Source of the DNA: Harriotta raleighana
Taxonomy: Eukaryota
Assembly: GCA_050575255.1 (NCBI GenBank)
Contig: JBNZDD010013668.1
Location: forward strand, 2,822,847-2,886,846
Reading direction: 5' to 3'
DNA length: 64,000 nucleotides
Every line of letters begins with the position of its first letter. Within the stretch, counting starts at the first letter, position 1. Positions 5,421-64,000 of the stretch are shown here, piece after piece. The notes below the pieces were generated by a model that did not search any database, was not told the origin of the DNA, and saw only the letters and a program-made list of their open reading frames with translations. The position numbers and the translations under genes were made by a program.

Positions 5421-6249
5421 TTATTACTTCAATATTACTCTATATAAATAAGACTATCTGAGGTTATACTGTATTCAGCTTTTCTTTCATATTCTCAGAA
5501 TGGTTGTGGGTAATTTCATAAACTAATCCTTTATGGGTAGATGGCTTTTCATTTTGGTTTGCAGAGAACTTATATACATGGGGAGATGTTAGGATTGACA
5601 GTCAAGACTATAAACTGCAGGGCTTGTTCTCACGCATGCAGAAAGTAGGCTAAAGGACAACTGGTTATGTAAGGGGATTACAATAAAACCTCTACATCAC
5701 TGCGGACATTTAGGAATCAAATAATTCTGCCTGGAGACTCAGAATAAGTCCAGCATTGACGCTACATAAGCATGTAAGCTGTACAGCAACAAGGATCTAA
5801 AAATACTGATTATTTACATGTTGAAATAGATGCAGATCCATATACATGTAAAAATGTCCTTGCTTTATGACTATTGTACATCATAGTAGATATCTGTACT
5901 ATTTTATAAGAGGCATTGGTTTAATCAGAGATAGCAATATACAGTACTTCCTAAAACATCCCAAAACTCCCAAAATGTTTAGCTGAATTTGGACCAAAAC
6001 AAATAGAAGGCACTAAGTAAATGTGCACAGATCCACTTTAAAGATTTTGAGACAATCCAATGAAGCTAGAGTATTATTTAGTTAAATAATATGAATTGAA
6101 ACAAATACAGATGTAACTATGTCATTGTTCACACATCCCAATTGCATCTGCAATAAATGTTAAAGCATCAATTATTATTAGTTTCGCACAGATGGTAGAA
6201 CTCCTGCCTATGAAGGGTAGGGTTAGAAAGTTGCAGGATCCAGTGCTCT

Positions 6250-6574
6250 GTGGAATCCTGTGGCTCAGTGGTTAGAGCACTCGCCTTACAAGCGTGAGAC
6301 CTATGTTACGAATCCAGGCAGGTCAGGGCGAAATCTTGGGCAAGTTTCCTTATTCCACACACCTAATTTCAATTTCAATCCCTCCAAAAAAAACAATAAT
6401 AAAATTGGTCATTTCAATCCACGACTGTTTGTGAGACACTGCTGTGCGCAATAGAGTGCTGCGTTTCGCCCACAGATATACAGTCAATTTACTTTACAGT
6501 ATATTCTGTGAAGCGCCTTGAGACGTCTAGAAGATATGAAAAGCGCTATATCAAATGCAAGGATTATTATTATT
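6250..6574 (+). mobile_element. Full-length tRNA-derived SINE, short form
   Basis: TGGCTCAGTGGTTAGAGCACTCGCCTTACAAGCG head ... AAGCGCTATATCAAATGCAAGGATTATTATT tail. Confidence 0.9.
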
Positions 6575-6589
6575 TGTATTTATTAGAAG

Positions 6590-9619: not shown

Positions 9620-10210
9620 GAGTCGTTGCTCTCAGCATCGGTCCCATTCTCTCTCGCCATTCCCTCTTCGATACTCTATAATCTGTCTTCCGTGCTTCCC
9701 ATTGCACGGAGACAGCCCTGGTCAAAGTCTCTAATGACATTCTAAACATCTGTGATCAGGGCTCTCCCACATCCTCAACCGACTCCCCATCTTCCAGAGG
9801 ATTTAATTCAAAATCCTTGTCCTCACATTCAATGTCCTCACAATGAATTTACCCCACCATAATTCTGTGAGCTCCTAAACCCCTGCCTGCCCTCTCCGCT
9901 CAGCAGGCTCCAGCCTGCTCCATGTCCCCCGACCCATCCTCCCCACCATTGGTGGGTGAGCTTTCAGCCACTCTGCCCCCCATCTCTGGAACTCCATCCT
10001 GCAGTCTTTCCAGCTCACCACCTTCCCAGCCTCCTTNGGTGGGTGAGCTTTCAGCCACTCTTCCCCCCATCTCTGGAACTCCATCCTGCAGTCTTTCCAG
10101 CTCACCACCTTCCCAGCCTCCTTCAAATCCTGCCTCAAGATCCTCCTCTCAACGGTCCCATCGGTGACCCCAAATCCCTCCCTTTCCTTCCACCCTCCCC
10201 GTCCCCAGCT
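9620..10210 (+). mobile_element. L2 LINE fragment (RT and 3' portions)
   Basis: CACGGAGACAGCCCTGGTCAAAGTC (ETALVKV), ATTTAATTCAAAATCCTTGTCCTCAC and CTCTGGAACTCC motifs. Confidence 0.7.
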
Positions 10211-19602: not shown

Positions 19603-19917
19603 TTAAAAATGGGTGTTCCACTACTGTATCCCAAAATGATTTATGAGGGTCCCCCTAGTGGCTCAATTTGAAAGTCATTGTCTGGAGTGAGCGTCATACA
19701 CACCTGGAGGGAAATTTACCACTGAATTTGTGCATCTAACTGATCTCAGCACAAAGACTTCTACATCTTTTCTTGTTGCACTGTTTGACCCACAAAATAC
19801 AAAGTCAATCCACTTGACAGTATATTCCTGTGAAAAGCTTTGACATTTCTCAACGTGACTATTTTTATGATTTATTTTCTGTCCCCACCACCCTGCAAAG
19901 TGGAGGTTAGCTGTTTT

Positions 19918-20254
19918 AATAATAATAATAATAATCTTTGCATTTGATATAGCGCTTTTCACATCTTATCAACATCCCAAAGCGCTTCACAGAATATACT
20001 GCAAAGTGAATTGACTTTATATTTGTGGGCGGAATGCGGCAGCCAATTGCGCACAGCAGTGTCCCACAAACAGTCGTGGATTGAAATGACCAATTTTATT
20101 ATTGTGGTTTTTTTGGAGGGATTATTATTAGGCATGTGGAGTAAGGAAACTTGCCCAAGGTTTCGCCCTGATCTGCCTGGATTACGAACACAGGTCTCAT
20201 GCTTGAAAGGCATGTAAGGCGAGTGCTCTAACCACTGAGCCACAGGAGCTCCAC
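19918..20254 (-). mobile_element. Full-length tRNA-SINE, short/young subfamily
   Basis: Near-identical to 690-1016; the two copies give the same spurious ORF translation. Confidence 0.92.
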
Positions 20255-21992
20255 AGAGCTCCATAGAGAAGGAAGGAAAACCTGATATTTTTATTCCTGT
20301 GATTCTCCAAACCGTTGTTTTCAGAGAGCACGATGAGCAAGTTGCTCACTTTCTTGCTTAGCTAAGTTGTTCCAAATAAAAGAATTGGTAAGAAAATAAC
20401 TTAAAAAGAATCTTTGAAAAGTCAGTCCAATCTATTTCACAAAGCACTGACATTTTCCTGACAGTTTATTTTCTTCACCAAAATAATCATTCATAATTGT
20501 TTTCACTTATTTCTGCAAAGTCTAATTCATTTGAGTTCCTTTTTCATATTCTACAGCACTCTGTCACACAGGTGTGACATTTACCAATTTTCAAGAGGAA
20601 GAAAAATGCCCTTTTTAGTTGGAAGTTATTAGCAAGAGAACATGAATTGTATCAGAAGTGGCTAAAGGGAACAATATACTGTAGCACACTTTTGCCAGAA
20701 GCTAAACTTAGTGCTCTGGAAGAGAGACTATGGAAGTTATTTCTTCTGAGTTGAAGGATATTGTCTATGAAGGTTCCTCTAAATTTCAAGTCCTGTACCA
20801 GAATGTGTTATATCTAATGAAATGCCAATCCAACTTACCTTTAGTGATGGGCTCTGTGTACAGAGTCAAAGAGCCGCACTAACGACACATAAAATCTGAT
20901 TAAGTAGTACATTGCCACTAAAATCCTTTGATGACCTGTCTGCTATTTCTGTTTCTAAACCATTTGTAAATTGCATTGAATCGCCAATGCATGTGTTGTC
21001 TTAGCTGACGCACAAATTGTAAGTCACAGGCAGTGTAATGCATTCCTTTTGAAAAGTGGAGGAGTTAATTATGAATTAGTAATTGCTGTTTATTAAAATG
21101 ATTATTTTCTAAGCTAAATTTATTAGAACAACATATTGACGTCAGGCTACGTTTGTTGTCCCGACGCTCTCTCCTGCTTTTAATTTGACACAAGAACCAA
21201 CATTCCCTACATACAATATTATAGAGACCAAAACCATCTCTATTTCAAATTAAATTTTATATAACAATAAAATTGTAACAATCTTCTGGAAATACATTGG
21301 TTGCTTTAGTGCAATACTGTAGAATGGAATGTTTTGATACAGTGTCTAGGTTTTGTTCCAACCAAAACCAAATAAGCCCATTCATATAAACATTGCCTAC
21401 TCATCAGTTGAAAAATAGGAATGTTGACTCTTAAAATATATTTTAGATCTGACCTCTGTTGCATAGCCTCCAGAAAAGTTTGAAATCAGCAAAGACAATA
21501 AAATCCATAGCACATCAGAAATGACTGGTTTAAAAACAAACATCCTACTTTTACTTGAAAGTGAACCCTTGCAACTATTTAAATACCTGTGTCACATTTT
21601 GTTGTTATATGTAATTTGTATGAAAACATGCTTGTGTGTGACATACAAATGAGGAAAAAAAGACATGGCATTTCTGAATTTATTTTCACATTTTTTTAAA
21701 CAAATACCTTTTCACTCTAGACAAAATTACTTTTTAAATGGCTCACATTTAGGGAAATAATTTAAAATTTATAGTACGTTATCTTCTTTCACTCCAAATT
21801 CAATGATCTGCTTGAACCAGAAATAGGAATGTGTTCCACTGAAATTAAGAATCAAACCAGTTATTTGCATATTCCAGTAGATTCCATACCAAACAAAACC
21901 GGGGGAGAACAATTAAGGTAGATTATTCGCAAACTGGCGAATCAGAAAGTTGAACTGCTATGGCATTGGCTAGAATCTTACAGAAATTGATG

Positions 21993-27012: not shown

Positions 27013-29099
27013 CATACATGTGGAAGTTAATCCTTTGTCTGTGGATGATACCACGAGGGAATATTTAGAATGAGAAAGAGGAGGATCCCAACAATAGAGT
27101 CTCAAGGTTTTCCCCAGGTGAACAAAAGGGGGCGAAATTTAGGCGTGATCGAAAGCACAGTTGAAGATTTTAGGAAATTGACTCAGGACACCTTTAATCC
27201 TGTGGGAGGACAATTTTTTTTTAACTTGAGCAAGCGTATATAGTGGTTGACTTTAAGAATGAAAAATACCTACATTTGTTACAGCTCCTTGGACGTCAGG
27301 AGGATATCGCAAAGCACTTCATTTTTTTTACTGCAATTGAATTTGAGTACAAACTCAGCAGCCAGTTTACACAAGGCAATATCCAATAAGCAGCCATGAT
27401 GCGAAGGACAATTTTGTTGATTATTGGCCAGGTACAAGAGGAGAGACACAAGACTGCTAAGCACTGTTGGCAACGGAACAACAAAACATATTACATGTCA
27501 GGCTAGCTCGTTGGTAGGATTTGGAGGAAAAGGTGGGAGAGAGTGCATACTCCATTACAGACAAAATGTTCATGCATTGGAAGCATGTATATATGAGCAG
27601 TATCTATGTGGTTTGGATATTCCTAGGCATGATGATGGGCTTATGTGCAGATCAAACACTTGATGAACCCATCCCACTACCCCCCCACTCCCCTATTGCG
27701 GATATGGGAGAAAACCTTTTGTTTCTCCATTTCTCACAAATCCATTAATAAAGCAGAATTTTCCACTGTTCAGTACAATTATCATGGCATCACATCATCC
27801 TATACACGGTGCTTTGGGCACAGGAAGAGAATAACATATGGTTAACATCTAAAATTCAAAATCATTGCAGCTGCTCAACTGCACGTTCCTGTAGCTCTTC
27901 GGAGAAAAAAATATGAATGGAGCAGTTTTTTATATAAGAAATTTTAGCTGATCAGAATGGTTTAAATGAAAGGCATATGTATACAAATGTACAGTGAACT
28001 CCTGACAATAAGACTCTGTCTTATATCATCATGTTATCAATATTCTGGCTATTTCCTCTGCAAAATGAGAATAACAGACCCTATCTCTTTATTTAATTAC
28101 ACTGCTTATAATGCAAAGTTACATTCTGTGCAACCCAGTGAGTAATATCGGATATATCATCAGAACAAACTTGATCGTCTCTAAACCAGGCCCATGCTGG
28201 GACTGTTCAGCACTCACCAAACTCGTGGGATAAAACTATCCTTAGTCAGACATGTGCTCAGCTATTTTAACTGTTTTGGCAAGATCTTTGAGTAGAAATT
28301 TTAGACCTTGCCTTCTGTGAGGTTATGCCTGATTGTTAAAGTCTCAGTGATTCAGGTTGCTAAAATGAGCAAAATGAACAAAAGCATTTGTAGGACAGAT
28401 GAGTGATTTCTGATTGCTATCTTTTGGCATGTTGAAAATGCCTACAGGGATTTTGTTGATTACAAATTGTTTATTACATAAAGATGTTTGATGTTCACAG
28501 ATAAACTAGTGGTACTATTCTTTGTTCTTTAATACACATCTCCTGAGAAATACACGGTTTCCAATACAGTAACAGGGATAAGTAATAGGAATCAGATAAT
28601 AAGCTAATTTATGTACACTCATTGCTATACATAAGCTTACACTCTACTTAAATGAGTTTCAACAAAGAAACTGACTGTTCTAGAGCAGGGGCTACTCTGT
28701 CATGCTGACCTTTCATGCAAAATTATACAGTATTTGTATAGCTCCTTTCCTGTCGGGAGGCCATGCCAAGGCAGGTTTCTTTTTGAAAATATATATTTAT
28801 TTATAATTAAATTTGGTATAAGAGCAATCCCAAACAAACTAAACTATCATCATTTCCATTTTTCTGATACAAAATCCATTCAGTTGTTTATGGTAAGTTT
28901 CCTCTCCGTACACAGGTTGTGCACACATATATTCAGGGCCGCTTCTTTTAAAACAAACAGGAGTCGCCCCTGTGTGCACCACATCCGTGTGAGCGCCCAC
29001 GCACACCCTGATAAACTCACTTGCTGCTTTCAGAAGGCGTCCTGATGTGCACCTTACACGCTCAAGTTTACTGTACATACATTTTCAGGACGCTCTTTG

Positions 29100-34712: not shown

Positions 34713-35485
34713 GTAACATAGGAATAGGAGTAGGCCATTCAGCCCTTCAAGCCTATTCTGCCATTTAATTGTGGCTTGTGGAGCTCCTGTGGCTTAGTGG
34801 TTAGAGCACTCGCCTTACAAGCATGAGACCTGTGTTCGAATCCAGGCAGATCAGGGCGAAACCTTGGGCAAGTTTCCTTACTCCACATGCCTAATAATAA
34901 TAGCTCCAAAAAAACCACAATAATAAAAAAATTGGTCATTTCAATCTATGACTATTTGTGGGACACTGCTGTGTGCAATTGGCTGCCGCATTCCGCCCAC
35001 AAATATACAGTCAATTCACTTTACAGTATATTCTGTGAAGCGCTTTGGGACGTCGATAAGATGTGAAAAGCGCTATATCAAATGCAAGGATTATTATTAT
35101 TATTAATTAGATCATGACTAATCTGTATCTCTACTAATCCTTTCAATTAAAATTCCTCACTTTCTCCCCGTATCCCTTAATACCTGACCTGCCAAAAATT
35201 TATCAACCTGGCTCTTGAAAATCCAGAATGCATGACCTTTTTGGGGGAGAGAATTACAGATTTCTACTACCCTTTGAGTGAAAGAATGCTTCCTGATTTC
35301 ACTCTTAAACAGTCTGGTTCTAATTTTAAGACTATGTCCCTTTGTTTTGGATTCCCACCAGAGGAAATAGTTTCTCTCTATCTACCCTATCAAATCTCTT
35401 TATCATCCTAAAAAACCTCTATCAAATCACCCTTCAATCTTCTAAATTCAATGGAATACAATCCAAGTTTACGCAGTCTTTCCTT
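34713..35485 (-). mobile_element. CR1 LINE 3' end interrupted by a young SINE
   Basis: AACATAGGAATAGGAGTAGGCCATTCAGCCC terminus, resuming at TTAGATCATGACTAATCTG after the SINE. Reverse-complement homologous to 39860-40272. Confidence 0.85.
34777..35104 (+). mobile_element. Full-length tRNA-SINE, short/young subfamily
   Basis: Complete head, body and tail; diagnostic GGGACGTCGATAAGATGTG. Confidence 0.92.
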
Positions 35486-35799: not shown

Positions 35800-37100
35800 G
35801 CTTCATAGTGTACATTCCAACTGCCAACACGAGTCTTGTTTTGGGGGGTGCAGCAGATTACTCTACAATACCTACTTGTGCAAGAGGGATGGTAAGTAGT
35901 GTGCGTTGTGTGGACCGTGCAAGAGGACTGACAGAGAGGAGTCTGACCTTCCATGTTGTCACATGGCCCCATGCATCCATGGCTTCCTCAGTGGATTGAC
36001 ATGTCGTCTGTGGTTGAATTGATTTCATTCTGGCAACATTAGGCAGATCTTGGCAGCTTTTCTGGCACTATCCTGATGCAGCTGCTCGGAAAGTACCTCA
36101 AATACTTCTAGCAGCTGCTTGGTTGTATCTTTTCTCACCTCCAATCTTTGGGCAGTGGAACTGGAATTATACTCAGCTGATCAGCAGGAGTAAGAGGGTT
36201 TCATACACTGAAGAGAAAACTGACTGCCTTTGGTTGCTTAAATCATTCTGCTGCTCCACTAGTCGAGTTGCCAGCTGCTCCACTGAATAGATTGCTAGTG
36301 CCATCTGTACATTTCTCAGCAACATCTGGACTGTGAGACTGGTAGGCAGTCAGCCCTTACCTTGGTGTGCAACATACAAGCTCTGCGAACCAGTGCTAAT
36401 GACTTTGCCAGGAGTCTTCATAGGCTGTTTGGTGGCGGAATAGTTTTCAATTACATTGGTTCACTGAAATGTTTTTACTTCTGATGGCTTAAAGTTTGTT
36501 GTAAATTTCTATTAGTGTCATAAGTGCAAGGTCACCTCTAAGGAACATATGTTTCAGACATTGGTCAATTGTGCCTCACATGCTTTTTATGGAAGACTGT
36601 TGATGATGCACTTCAATTTCCAATTGAATGTTGAACTCCTTCAATACAATTAGATGCTATGTGCTATGGATGTTATTATTTTGTCAACTTATGCACCTAC
36701 GCATGGAAATTTCACTGAGTCTAGAATGGAATGTACACTCTCTGCCCAGAAGAATGAATCTGCTTATCTCATTCCGGAAAGTATGAGGTGCAGATCAGCA
36801 AGAACCTTGAGAACCTCAGGGTGTGCATTCGGCTACTGCGAAAAAAAATATTGTACTTGCTACAGTGAACACTGTCTGGCAAGTTCTTCACTGCTTGCCT
36901 AGCTAAGACCACCCAACCAGTTAGTCCTTTGGCTTGCAAGGTTAACAGGAGCTGAGTGGGAAGAATGTTTATTCACTGAAATCAGCATTAATATACCCCT
37001 GTCACGTTCCTGAGGCTAAAAATCAGTTTATTGTGGTTGCTGATGGCCACATCATGGGCAGTTCTGGAACTTCTGATTAGCTGTTCTTTAGCAGCTCAAT
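35800..37100 (-). mobile_element. Highly decayed element, possibly the 5' part of an I/Nimb-type LINE (structured UTR + gag-like remnant)
   Basis: 36693-36990 is homologous to 44836-45140. Cys/His-spaced remnants on the minus strand at 35960-36130 are weak, by-eye evidence only. Confidence 0.35.
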
Positions 37101-37474: not shown

Positions 37475-38510
37475 CAACAACAACAACAACAACAACAAAA
37501 TTACATTTATAGAGCGCGTTTCACGTCAGGAGGACGTCCCAAGGCGCTGGACAGATGATTTAAGACCCGAGCAGGGGGAAATGTTCAGGGCGAGGGGGGA
37601 GGGGGAGGGTGGGAGCAAGGAGGAGGTAGAGAGTCGAGAGGGGAGCTGAAGGCACGGTTGAAGAGAAAGGTCTTGAGACCGGCCTTGAAAGAGGAAAGGG
37701 AGGGAGCGAGGCGAAGGCNNNNNNNNNNNNNNNNNNNNNNNNNNNNNNNNNNNNNNNNNNNNNNNNNNNNNNNNNNNNNNNNNNNNNNNNNNNNNNNNNN
37801 NNNNNNNNNNNNNNNNNNNNNNNNNNNNNNNNNNNNNNNNNNNNNNNNNNNNNNNNNNNNNNNNNNNNNNNNNNNNNNNNNNNNNNNNNNNNNNNNNNNN
37901 NNNNNNNNNNNNNNNNNNNNNNNNNNNNNNNNNNNNNNNNNNNNNNNNNNNNNNNNNNNNNNNNNNNNNNNNNNNNNNNNNNNNNNNNNNNNNNNNNNNN
38001 NNNNNNNNNNNNNNNNNNNNNNNNNNNNNNNNNNNNNNNNNNNNNNNNNNNNNNNNNNNNNNNNNNNNNNNNNNNNNNNNNNNNNNNNNNNNNNNNNNNN
38101 NNNNNNNNNNNNNNNNNNNNNNNNNNNNNNNNNNNNNNNNNNNNNNNNNNNNNNNNNNNNNNNNNNNNNNNNNNNNNNNNNNNNNNNNNNNNNNNNNNNN
38201 NNNNNNNNNNNNNNNNNNNNNNNNNNNNNNNNNNNNNNNNNNNNNNNNNNNNNNNNNNNNNNNNNNNNNNNNNNNNNNNNNNNNNNNNNNNNNNNNNNNN
38301 NNNNNGGCCGAAAGGTCGAGGAGGACGAGGAGGCAGAGGGAGCCCTGGTCACAGATGGTCAGGATGTCATTGGTGACCTTGACCAGGGCAGTTTCCGTGC
38401 TATGGGCAGCACGGAAACCCGACTGGAGGGGTTCGAGGAGTGAGTGGGTGGAGAGGAAAGAGCGCAGCTGGGAGGCGACAACTCTTTCCAGAACCTTGGA
38501 CAGGAAGGGG
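37475..38510 (-). mobile_element. Young L2 LINE 3' part spanning the assembly gap 37719-38305
   Basis: (TTG)n tail and 3' region nearly identical to 4975-5200. After the gap come RT-upstream motifs (CAGCACGGAAACTGCCCTGGTCAAGGTCACCAATGAC on the minus strand). Confidence 0.85.
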
Positions 38511-43888: not shown

Positions 43889-44208
43889 TAATAATAATCC
43901 TTGAATTTGATATGGCACTTTTCATATCTTCTAGATGTCTCAAAATACTTCACAGAATATACTGTAAAGTGAATTGACTGTATATTTGTGGGTGAAACAC
44001 GGCAGCCAATTACGCACAGCAATGTCCCACAAACAGTCGTGGATTGAAATGACCAATTTAATTATTGTGTTTTTTTTGAACAGATTATTATTAGGCATGT
44101 GGAGTAAGGAATATGTGCCCAAGGTTTCGCCCTGACCTGGCTGGATTCGAACAAAGGTCTCACGCTTGTAAGGCGAGTGCTCTAACCACTGAACTACAGG
44201 ACTCCACA
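43889..44208 (-). mobile_element. Full-length tRNA-SINE, short form
   Basis: Complete reverse complement of the consensus. Confidence 0.9.
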
Positions 44209-44329
44209 GTACAGTACAGGTACATTGTTTTACATAAATTTTCTTGATTTAAAAATCTTGTGGATAATTCAAACAACCAAACCTGTGGGTTATTACTTTA
44301 ATTACATGTAACATTCTGATAACTTGTGA

Positions 44330-45320
44330 TGAAGTTCCAATCTGCTTGGATCTCAAATATTGTAGTATCTCAGCATAATGGATCTACATTTGTAACTGGC
44401 TGCAATATAGTCATTGCTCCTCTGCACTTCTGTTTATTTTTGTTTCCATTTGTGGGATGCAACTTGAATCAGGCTGGCAAGCTACGCGAGGAATGGCTGA
44501 AGTTAAATTGTTCTGTATTCCATTGATGAATGTGTTTGTTTCAAACTGAGGCACTGTAATCATTCATAGTCTGGTCAACTGTTCCACTCTTGAGACGAAT
44601 GTGGACAGAAAATGGACACACACACAAAATAACAAGTTTAAGATATTGCACTAATGGGCATCCATGATGTAATGAGTGAAGTGTTATTATTATCACCTCT
44701 ACCTCGGCACTTGTTCAGTCTCCTGTTTGTCGGCATGATACTGTATAATTTTTGGTGAGCCAGGTGCTGACACGAGAGGAATCTCATCAACATATTTAAG
44801 AGTATCCAAACCAAGCTGAGATTTCCACACATCTCGCCTACACATGGAAATCCCAGAGATAAATTGTTGGAATGGAATGCACACTCTCTCCCTGAAGGAA
44901 GGGATCCTGCTTACCTAATTCCAGAAAGCATTAGGTGCAGTAGGAGCCAAGGCTTGGGGACCCCAGAGTGTGCTTTGGAATACTTTTGGGAGTCTAACCA
45001 GCTAAAGCAATATAGTTTGCCATGAATAACACTGCCTGGCAAGCTTTTCCGCTTCCCAGCTAGGGCTACCTTCCTCATTAGTTCCTTGGTTTGCAAAGTT
45101 AACAGGAGTTGAGTGGGAGGATTCCCTGCCCTCAGTGAATGGTCTGCACTTCCAGGTCCTGATGATAATCCAGGGTGGCTGTGCTGTCATTAGCAGTGTC
45201 CTAGAATACTGCAGACCCACCTGGCTCAGGAACCGACCAAGACCACCACAGAGGCTGGCTCGGTTCTGATATTCTGTTGCCATATTCTGGAGCTACTTAT
45301 TGAGCATGTTGCTGCCTTTA
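44330..45320 (-). mobile_element. Second copy of the decayed element homologous to 36.7-37.1 kb (possible LINE 5'UTR + endonuclease remnant)
   Basis: Colinear homology to 36693-36990. Minus-strand ...SLITSW and ..QE weakly resemble an APE N-terminus. Confidence 0.4.
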
Positions 45321-50540: not shown

Positions 50541-51964
50541 ATAAAAAAAATTTTACCTCTCCAATTTTACCCCAGCTAATTCCACTTCATGATCAAATGA
50601 CAAAGAATTAACCAAAATGCATCATAATAACAAATCGGATTTTATATAGGACTTTTCACATTGGAGACCCAACTCAGACCGATCTGATAGAAAATTGAAA
50701 AGTTCATAATCATGTTGTATTTATAATTACATTATACAAATGTAATTTTTATGTTGCAAAGGGTACTGTTCTAAATTCAGGATGAAACCACAAATGGGGG
50801 GAAATTCTATTGATTGTTAAGTTACCAAGTTTGCCAAATTTACACTTGCAATGAGAGCAATCCTATTGTGAGTGCATCCCACCAAAGTCATTATCTTTAC
50901 TGACCACTGGAAATTTATATCAATAGTCTGAGTCATGTGAACCCATCCTAATGCTACACAAAGTTACAAACAGTAAATAGCAATATGCTCAGTATACAAT
51001 TTATAAAATACAAATAAAATTTAAAGGCTCAGTGTTTTCTTTATCAAAGAGAAGGTAAGAGAAAGGGGAATATTTTCAATTAAGGTACTNGCTCAGTGTT
51101 TTTTTTATCAAAGAGAAGGTAAGAGAAAGGGGAATATTTTCAATTAAGGTACTCTCCAAAATAAGTAAAACCAAGTAAGACTATTCCTTGTTAGGAGATA
51201 TTTAAATGCATTTTCCTTTCTTCTGTGGGCATCTGCTAATTTGAGATTGTAGGCGCCAGGAAGTTACTCAGCTTCTGAGCGAGTTGCAGCAATTCCATAG
51301 GATTTAACACAGGATTTTTTTTCCTCTCCAGGCCTCGGTACTGATCAAGAAGCACCAAAGCCAAGAACCTTTAGCACCAGATGAGTACATGAGAAAATGC
51401 TGTGATACCATCTGTTGGTGACATCACCAAATGTAGACGTGTGCGAGACAAGGAAAACAAATCTCTATTTACAGCCCACACTTGATTAGATATTATCTAA
51501 TAGCCTGCACATGAAAGAGCTCACAGCGCTATACAAAAATAACTGTTTGTTTCCGATGAAAGGACATACGCAAAATACTACAACTATACAATGCAATTTA
51601 CACTTACATGACACTTTTCACATCAAATGATATTCTTCCAAAGCTTTCCAAATAGTTATTTCATACTCCATTACAATTGATGTTTGTTGCTGAATTGTTT
51701 ATGTCGTATATTCTGCAAAGTAAGTTATTGTACACACTGATAATGGCAACATAAAAATAACCTCAGTGGAATACGTACTGAGAGTCAATGCATAATCCAG
51801 AACTTTTGAATATAAAGTGATAATAACAATAATAATATTCCTTGCAAGTGCCCTATCATGGCATTGAGCNTTTTTGAATATAAAGTGATAATAACAATAA
51901 TAATAACAATAATAATATTCCTTGCAAGTGCCCTATCATGGCATTGAGCTCAATCGCATGTTCA

Positions 51965-57567: not shown

Positions 57568-58146
57568 CTTTGCAGCCACCGAAGAGCCTGGTTTCTCCAG
57601 CAAATCCCACAACTTCTGCCTCTTCTCTGGGCAGCAAGAGCTGTCAAACTCCTCTCCCTCCCTCTCCTTCATGGTCTCGGCTTCCCGCCTCAGCTCCTCG
57701 TTCATCTGCTCTTTTTTCTGATGGTACCTGGCTTGGCAGCAAGACTCCAAGTAAATCTCATCCACCCCCCAGTAGTCGAGCTCCTGGCCGAACGACAGAG
57801 CGCACATCTCCTCCATCATGTGCAGTTTCCCAGTGCGGTAGAAATTCAAGATCGACGTGAAAGCCCCCGGGTGTCGATCAAAAAAGTACTCGTTCTCGGG
57901 CAGGTCGTAGTCATCGCAGACTTCCATCAGGGATTCGTCGGTGTTGCAATCCCTGAGCTTTCCCAGGCGTGTCCTGGGGAGCCTGTCCAGCGTTCTCCAC
58001 AGCACTTCGTGGTTGAGTCCCCCCACGTTGATCTTCACCCTCCGGGAGCAAGCCTTGCTCCTGGTGTTCTCGATGGGCTCCGGCGGGAGGGAGGCTGTGG
58101 ATCCGGAGGCTTTCTTGGCCATGACTGTTGGGATCTTCTCAGCCAT
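57568..58146 (-). CDS. KCNB2: First coding exon of voltage-gated potassium channel Kv2.2 (N-terminus + T1 tetramerisation domain, 193 aa)
   Basis: Translation [24 protein letters not shown]...[33 protein letters not shown]...[42 protein letters not shown]...[16 protein letters not shown]. The MAEK start, [11 protein letters not shown] and SFGQELDY are Kv2.2-type rather than Kv2.1. ATG at 58146 in context TCCATGG. The exon ends AAG|GTAAGAT at 57568/57567 (phase 0, 579 nt). Confidence 0.96.
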
Positions 58147-59160: not shown

Positions 59161-59419
59161 TTCTCTGTTGTACTGGTTCAGTACTGCACGCTTGTCTTGT
59201 GTTTCTCTTCCATACATATGTATATTTGGGGGGGGGCGGCCACCTAATTTTTATCCATGCGATGACTTTGAAGGATGCGAGGTTTCCATACCCCACACGC
59301 CTCGGTTTAGTTAGCAGTAAGTAGGGACCAGGTTGTTAGTCGATTGGCGGGTTGCTTTACGGGCAGGGTGTGAGGTGGGGGTGCTGGTGGGGGGGGGGGG
59401 GAAGTCTCCTTGTTTATCG

Positions 59420-60820
59420 TCCCAAGCTGCTACATAACTCCTTCTCTGCCATTCTCGAAACCCTTGCCCCCCTCACCTCCCGAACCATTTCNCACCCTTC
59501 TGGCCTCCTTGTGCCTCTGCTTCCCTTACTCCTTCTCTGCTGCCCTGGAGTCATGAACTCCTCCCCCGCTGGGCTTTCACCCGCGATGACCTATCTTCCA
59601 CGGCCACTCTTCAACAACAACAAAATAATGACATTTGTACAACGCCTTTCACATCGGAAGGATGTCCCAAGCTGCTACATAACTCCTTCTCTGCCATTCT
59701 CGAAACCCTTGCCCCCCTCACCTCCCGAACCATTTCCTATTCATACAAGTCACCCTGGTACTTCAGTCACCTCTGCTTCCTCAAGGCTCAAATTTAATTT
59801 AACTGTCCACTGGCAGATCTGACTGGACCACATCAGAATATATTGCTCCGCCCTCACCTCCGCTAAATCATTCTTCCACTCCAGGATAATCTTGGGAGTC
59901 CAAGGACAATGCAAGGCCTCTCTTCTGCATCACCAACCAGCTTCTCTGCCCACCATCTCATGCCTCATCCATCCCCTTCTCCATCTCTGACAGTGAGGAG
60001 ATGCTGGTTTTCCTTGAGACCCAAATCGAGGGGATCAGTTCAACCACCTCTGCCCTTCCAACTGCTACCCCCCCCCCCCCCCCCAACTCCCCCTCACATT
60101 CCAGCCCCTACCCCTGCCTCCCTCATCACCTTCCGACCTGTCTTCCCCTCTGTCACTATTATAATCAACATGAAACCAACTACCTGCTGCTTCGACCCCG
60201 TCACTACCGGTCTCCTTACTTCCCAGCTCCATCTCCTGGCCCCTCCATTCGCAGATATCATCAACCTCTCCCTGTCCACTGACATGATCCCGCCATCATC
60301 ACCCCATCCTCAAAATCCTTCCCTGGACCCATCCCTGCTCTCAAATTACTGCCTCCATCTCCAACCTCTCTTTCCAAGGCCCTTGATCGAATCGTTGCTT
60401 CCCAGGTTTGCTCCTTCCTCTCCCACAAACCCCTCTAGTCAGGATTCTGTGACTTACCTCAAACACCATCTCCATTTTGTCTCCACAGACAGCTTCTACT
60501 TTAGCCCCCACATGTGTGGTGTTCCTCCAGGATCTGTCCTTGGTCCCCTCCTCTTCAACTTGTAGATGCTCCCTTTTGGTGACATCATCCACAGACATGG
60601 GGGTCACCTTCCACATGTATGCAGATGACTCCCAAATCTATTTCTCTGCCCCAACCCAAGTCCACTGCTGCCTGACAGAATGTCTGTCAGACGTCAACTC
60701 CTGGATGAGAGCTAACTTTCTACAGCTGAACGACAACAAGACCGAGGCCCCCCTGATTGGCTCCTGCCAGCGCCGCCAACCCTCAGGCATTGATAGCATT
60801 TCACGTGAGCTCTGGTTGTA
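59420..60820 (+). mobile_element. Decayed L2 LINE ORF2 (with an inserted short L2 tail at about 59612-59670)
   Basis: MKPTTCCFDP, CGVPPGSVLGPLLF, FHMYADDSQIY, CLSDVNSWMRANFLQLNDNKTE. Confidence 0.88.
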
Positions 60821-63272: not shown

Positions 63273-64000
63273 GTAGGCGGCCAAGGCAAGAACATGGGTT
63301 CTTAACAAGAACATGGGTACTTAACAAGAACATGGGTTGTATGGTAAATACATTGAAATTGGTGGATGCCAGCCAGAAAGTAATGTAGTTTCATATCGAG
63401 GAGGCATTATTAATNACTTAACAAGAACATGGGTTGTATGGTAAATACATTGAAATTGGTAGATGCCAGCCAGAAAGTAATGTAGTTTCATATCGAGGAG
63501 GCATTATTAATCCCTGTAATTCTATCAGAAATTTGCCATTTCTGGCATTTGAGTCAAGTCGGGAATGATAACCCACAAAAGTGGCAGCAGGACTATCCAG
63601 TTTGTAGATAAAGATAAACAGATAAAAGGACAGGTGCAATACTGACAATATTAATTCAGAAAACTATGTTCTGAAAATCTGTAATAGTTTACTTAATGGT
63701 TGGTAATCCTGGGCACAAAAGATAGTTAAGATATTGCCTCTAGGTATTTAGGTTTTTGGATTGGTATTTGGTAGATGAATGATAGTGCCTTTCATATTTG
63801 GAGCTAAACTAAAAAAAGTTAATATTTTCAAGTTCTGTTTAGTTTGTTTTCCTTGGTTCTATTTATGACACATTTGTTTACTGTCCCTTCTGATATTGAT
63901 CCAGTTTTGAAACTTGGAATAGTATAATTGTTAACACTGACTATAGTTTATCAGTGTTGTCATCAACAGCCCAAATTGCTTTCCTTTTATAGCTTGGCAA

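Follow-up and report, generated by a model that had tools for sequence, protein, structure and literature searches.

The 3' untranslated regions (UTRs) of several non-LTR retrotransposons are reported to be structured. The R2 protein of Bombyx mori is described as binding a structured 3' UTR (PMC11194090), and stem-loops with compensatory changes are said to be common at the 3' ends of stringent LINEs and SINEs (PMC3747384). In a 64,000-nt stretch of the Harriotta raleighana genome (contig JBNZDD010013668.1, positions 2,822,847 to 2,886,846; hereafter the window), two diverged sequences were noticed that form the same stems in spite of letter differences, some of them paired. Very probably, both derive from the central part of the ~590-nt 3' UTR of an old and abundant LINE and persist as decaying genomic copies. 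The RNA of the source elements is likely to have folded, while the paired changes likely arose by chance in one copy after it had inserted. The feature is real but ordinary: a set of decayed LINE 3' UTR copies.

The first sequence, copy A (36694-36966, minus strand, delimited by an nhmmer match), is an internal fragment of the UTR spanning UTR positions ~211-507. The second, copy B (44746-45282, minus strand), is nearly the whole UTR (positions ~46-594) with a short A-rich tail at its end, and belongs to the main subfamily. The two are colinear diverged homologs, as the sequence-only reading had held, with 69.5% identity over 256 columns (E 8e-23). That reading had also counted only two copies, a view that does not survive the third fragment within the window, copy C (27535-27671, plus strand; nhmmer E 1.9e-13), or the 5221 first-look candidates returned by a genome search with copy B as the query. 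The 40 candidates that were scored share 75-81% identity with the query, self match aside. Copy C, more decayed than the other two, is a piece of the 3' end of this UTR and scores with the older subfamily; used as a DNA query, it returned mostly an unrelated neighbouring repeat. A crude extrapolation from three fragments per 64 kb in the window gives ~50,000 fragments, and a second rough one, from 61 incidental matches in 574 kb of flanks, gives ~117,000.

Divergence from the family consensus is 23.9% for copy A, 14.0% for copy B and 32.6% for copy C, with a mean of 16.8% across 198 copies. Copy A is 20% diverged from the consensus of an older subfamily, in which it is classed; this subfamily differs from the main one by a shorter linker and at other sites. 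When the copies are aligned, a unit of ~590 nt emerges whose sense strand is the minus strand of the window and which has a sharp 3' end followed by an A-rich tail among the 62 3' ends listed. The supposed ~300-nt element is therefore a portion of a larger unit, itself the tail of a longer LINE. The 3' end is fixed, the tail is A-rich, and 5' truncation is variable, which is the pattern of a LINE. No convincing target-site duplication was seen in 18 near-full UTR copies, which are ~15% diverged and gave 4-7 nt matches at chance level only.

Other repeats are interspersed with these copies in the window. A tRNA-headed SINE of ~330 nt is present in many copies, as judged from Rfam tRNA matches and self-BLAST (e.g., 688-1017, 6245-6580, 19914-20259, 34777-35111, and 43889-44209), and at 59867-60820 and 37480-38500 lie the decayed, RT-like remains of a different sort of LINE, which look L2/CR1-like by eye. 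Near-identical short duplications beside single N positions (9943-10123, 51027-51153, 59419-59736, and 63319-63511) are likely assembly joins.

Some copies of the family run past the ~590-nt unit on the 5' side. Walking upstream from these leads to an open frame with reverse transcriptase (RT), thumb and C-terminal CCHC motifs, and with its stop codon at the start of the UTR. The RT and the UTR are colinear on one strand at single loci (L152, L162 and L157 among others). Since a reverse-transcriptase ORF lies directly upstream on the same strand and its stop codon falls at the start of the unit, the sequences under study come from the middle of a LINE 3' UTR. The upstream walk ends at the start of the RT region and did not recover an endonuclease domain; the closest proteins to the family RT carry PF03372. 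A derivation from a tRNA-, 5S- or 7SL-type SINE was also considered and rejected, as Rfam finds no small-RNA head in nine loci and the 5' side is ORF2. Copies pile up at a G-rich run near the stop codon (e.g., L033, L044, L046, and L047), and in L057 and L043 the upstream ORF2 is apparently joined straight to the junction point, which suggests internal deletions.

The protein is a distant one. Pfam RVT_1 matches one fragment weakly (E 2.5e-4, below the curated cut-off), single-fragment protein searches gave either no match or one short relative (P0001), an Atlas search returned only matches under 0.9, and a PDB search found only distant R2 and L1 proteins. A profile built from five RT fragments, on the other hand, finds 65 RT proteins, and the family consensus protein aligns with an endonuclease-RT protein at 31% identity over 490 columns (E 2e-72 in a set of 66 proteins). 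In a tree of 47 rows, which sets the family among database matches that cover the RT region and contains no labelled RTE or RTEX reference, the family falls in a group of 24 rows with chytrid, Amphiamblys, Puccinia and unnamed proteins, with a support of 88/93 that is below the strong-support mark of the tool. The Xenopus, turtle and ant rows fall apart from this group. LINE proteins from chytrids, Amphiamblys, Puccinia and environmental sources (P0002, P0020, P0009, P0015, and P0029) align with the family across the RT, the thumb and the C-terminal CCHC motif at 28-34% identity. They are nevertheless distant and carry an endonuclease, whereas the family protein is known here from the RT region onward.

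In PMC9926174, chytrid families carry the labels LINE and LINE/RTE-X, and traces of RTEX in vertebrates are reported in PMC5753468 and PMC9004415. These labels and traces make the RTE-X clade a lead for the family, not a result. Nothing here shows horizontal transfer; identity to the nearest proteins is 31%, and few animal transposon proteins were returned. A literature search found no description of the family, for which a Repbase or Dfam entry may already exist.

The stems on which the sequence-only reading was built are present in the sequence with the letter differences it described. Their positions are given here for copy A, without strand. Stem (a) has its arms at 36729-41 and 36818-30 (36729-36830 overall), and its pairs are doubly changed no more often than expected across the family. 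Stem (b) occupies 36766-36789, with a swapped pair at 36770/36785; this swap is found in one of 125 copies, namely copy A, where 0.4 are expected. The swapped pair of stem (c) (36809-36817) is 36810/36816, which is doubly changed in three of 122 copies (2.1 expected), and that of stem (d) (36855-36884) is 36855/36884, doubly changed in five of 119 (2.7 expected). At all three pairs copy B has the consensus state and copy A the changed one.

Whether three such swaps exceed chance depends on the pairs that are counted. When only the four chosen stems are counted, with their 28 Watson-Crick pairs, simulation gives a probability of 0.035, uncorrected for the way in which the stems were picked; it rises to 0.30 when each of the 63 predicted pairs in the span of copy A is included. 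Three swaps in those 28 pairs occur in two of 77 copies, copy A included. The wider family gives the same picture. Over the confidently predicted pairs, 402 double Watson-Crick swaps are seen in 327 copies against 397.4 expected, and 208 in 199 copies against 217.5 expected, with no excess in either set. RNAalifold returned no consensus pair from 51 copies drawn from ~145 covering the region. An unbiased co-segregation scan yielded 198 column pairs, 23 of them of the Watson-Crick swap type, and none of the 23 coincides with a predicted pair. Paired and unpaired columns decay at about equal rates. No significant covariation is therefore seen across many copies, the very outcome that the sequence-only reading had named as its refutation. 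Its argument from G-U wobbles, which were taken to favour the plus strand, fares no better: G-U and A-C states are about equally common over all copies (1286 vs 1263), as neutral transitions would give, so the wobbles of a single copy say nothing on strand, and the sense strand is in fact minus.

Copy A is found at the orthologous position in at least two other organisms. Among the sequencing runs that hold the sequence, no RNA run was listed. Swaps (c) and (d) are readable in these orthologs, while (b) is masked by paralog depth. Both orthologs have G at 36810 and thus only half of swap (c). Swap (d) is common to the orthologs that cover it, with no difference listed, and so predates the split from the two relatives. 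Given that (d) is in the orthologs and (b) is unreadable there, both could stem from an unsampled source element. The orthologs hold 92-96 extra letters at the 3' side of copy A (window 36674-36698), and these match the 3' hairpin of the older subfamily. Copy A differs from the two orthologs by 5.3% and 5.1%, and the flanks by 6.9% and 6.4%; the difference is not significant in either case (P 0.21 and 0.27).

The fold itself is better examined in the source element than in its remains. The family consensus folds with a z score of -4.9 in sense and -3.4 in antisense. Windows at z of -2 or below make up 7 of 12 in sense, none of 12 in antisense and 1 of 14 in ORF2, where windows centre on zero. 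The long form of copy B still folds at z -2.67, while the ~300-nt pieces of the sequence-only reading are no more stable than shuffled sequences, whichever strand is folded (z -0.78, -0.51, -0.98, and -0.21). The nested 3' domain is the same in all subfamily consensuses.

A comparison of the older and main subfamilies gives 27 diagnostic substitutions, of which 11 are unpaired, 7 are one-sided and keep the pair, 4 lie in two compensated pairs, and 5 break a pair. Pair-breaking substitutions are fewer than expected in the sense fold (5 vs 9.8, P 0.012), and the two compensated pairs formed by four of the substitutions, 475/528 and 128/184, compare with 0.42 expected (P 0.014), each pair being one event. 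Neither effect appears when the same substitutions are placed on the antisense fold (P 0.21 and no compensated pair). These values are to be read with the caveat that the subfamilies were defined iteratively from the same data, and partly from copies picked for their likeness to copy A. At pair 475/528, A-U is found in 124 of 135 main copies, while the older copies have G-C in 14 (the largest class), A-C in 8, G-U in 7 and A-U in 4. The counts depend on the aligner: an HMM alignment of the older group gives A-C 13 and G-C 4, an anchor-based count gives three G-C among 94 (P 0.008), and a motif-based count missed most older copies and is uninformative. Pair 128/184 is mixed in the older group (T-A 9, C-A 8, and C-G 7). 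A substitution at 428 (G>A), enriched in the older group (17/50 vs 12/159), breaks a pair of stem (b) on the sense strand, and an arm-swap energy test between subfamily consensuses did not favour the native pairings in general. Support for a fold at the source level is thus modest and varies with the choice of grouping and alignment. A selected fold in the source element nonetheless seems fairly probable. Of the proposal of a structured retroelement RNA, then, the retroelement and the likely folding of its source stand (consensus z score and subfamily comparison), whereas the swap evidence and the particular candidates put forward do not.

It is tempting to read the swaps of copy A as inherited from a rare source subfamily that was selected on exactly these stems, which was the original argument. 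Copy A does belong to an older subfamily, its three swaps come without a single transversion mismatch in the 28 chosen pairs, and swap (d) is older than the split from two relatives. One half of swap (c), 380 C>T, is moreover enriched in the older group (13/47 vs 12/161), which leaves the direction of that change uncertain. However, swap (b) is absent from all 30 loci fetched as the best matches of copy A, swaps (c) and (d) recur in separate copies and not together, and copies of the older group retain the consensus state at each of the three pairs. Only half of (c) is present in the orthologs. In addition, A-C mismatches are seen on the transcribed strand at four other pairs within these stems. 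Inheritance from such a subfamily is therefore improbable; the swaps are differences of copy A from the family consensus that its subfamily does not share, and they are within what chance gives over the predicted pairs. Exaptation of copy A in the host as a structured RNA or regulatory element of an intron would fit its orthologous presence and its slightly smaller number of differences relative to the flanks, but that difference is not significant, the window copy lacks the 92-96 letters of its relatives, and it folds no better than shuffles. This makes exaptation very improbable. No more credit is due to the candidates named at the outset, a retroelement 5' UTR, an IRES or a self-cleaving ribozyme. 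The consensus is structured, as these would require, but the region comes after the stop codon of the ORF, and the A-tail follows it at a distance of ~80-380 nt. As part of a 3' UTR on the minus strand it is excluded by position from being a 5' UTR or IRES. Rfam, at gathering and E-value thresholds, gave no credible match within the element, ribozyme families included, in the window or in the nine loci searched for it, which agrees with the earlier impression that it is not a known ncRNA.

A different question is whether many copies derive from a non-autonomous derivative that consists of the UTR only, a SINE-like LINE tail in which the fold might also include, at the boundary marked by the stop codon, a promoter or a site of processing. 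The ORF/UTR junction is reached by 39 copies selected on their middle or tail. Of these, 24 have their start between -40 and +15 of it and no ORF2 upstream, 11 continue past it, and in 4 ORF2 lies upstream as a separate piece. Against this, the G-rich run sits at the junction and ORF2-selected matches often break there too, which more simply fits a stall of reverse transcription or a deletion hot spot. The starts also scatter across ~50 nt, most copies (90 of 129) begin within the UTR itself, and no small-RNA head is detected by Rfam. Such a derivative is unlikely, if conceivable, and is compatible with the explanation preferred for copies A and B. Equally speculative is a wider scenario, in which a vertebrate LINE with fungal, microsporidian-like and environmental nearest relatives has a 3' UTR whose multi-domain fold is selected and unusually large, and this UTR was mobilised independently as a headless non-autonomous element to become one of the commonest old chimaera repeats.

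Under the preferred explanation, that of decayed LINE 3' UTR copies, the ORF2 protein would recognise its template by binding the folded 3' UTR, by analogy with R2 and L2-type tails. Insertion would follow established LINE biology, with target-primed reverse transcription that starts from the A-tail where the target is nicked and often stops before the RNA is fully copied. Selection would act on the fold in source elements only. Both copies lie downstream of, and on the same strand as, the first coding exon of a Kv2-type (KCNB1-like) voltage-gated potassium channel gene (57571-58146, minus strand; BTB_2 E 8e-32, PDB KCNB1 E 4e-109), and are presumably intronic in it. Once inserted, they would have decayed neutrally in this intron.

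The main value of these results is annotation, as they assign a parent LINE and a strand to a very common repeat. They also illustrate how two dead copies mislead when compensatory changes are scored between them; subfamily consensuses are the proper level for such a test. Confirmation of the 590-nt fold would add a large template-recognition structure of a LINE from a little-studied lineage.

Among described elements of cartilaginous fish, the chimaera SINEs CmiSINE and SacSINE1-CM (PMC5499810) are likewise high-copy, retroposed and of similar divergence. As described there, they have tRNA heads, CORE or Deu domains, and L2 tails, and this anatomy sets them apart from the present family, in which Rfam detects no tRNA and the 5' side leads into an ORF2 of its own. 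A likeness is also seen to the 3' UTRs of stringent-type non-LTR elements, as reported for R2 (PMC11194090) and for the stem-loops of LINEs and SINEs (PMC3747384). In both cases the 3' end is non-coding and folded, in the present family probably so, and such compensation as is indicated lies between source lineages and not among dead copies. No sequence homology to those tails is claimed; unlike them, the 3' UTR described here is ~590 nt long, ends in an A-rich tail and is predicted to contain many hairpins.
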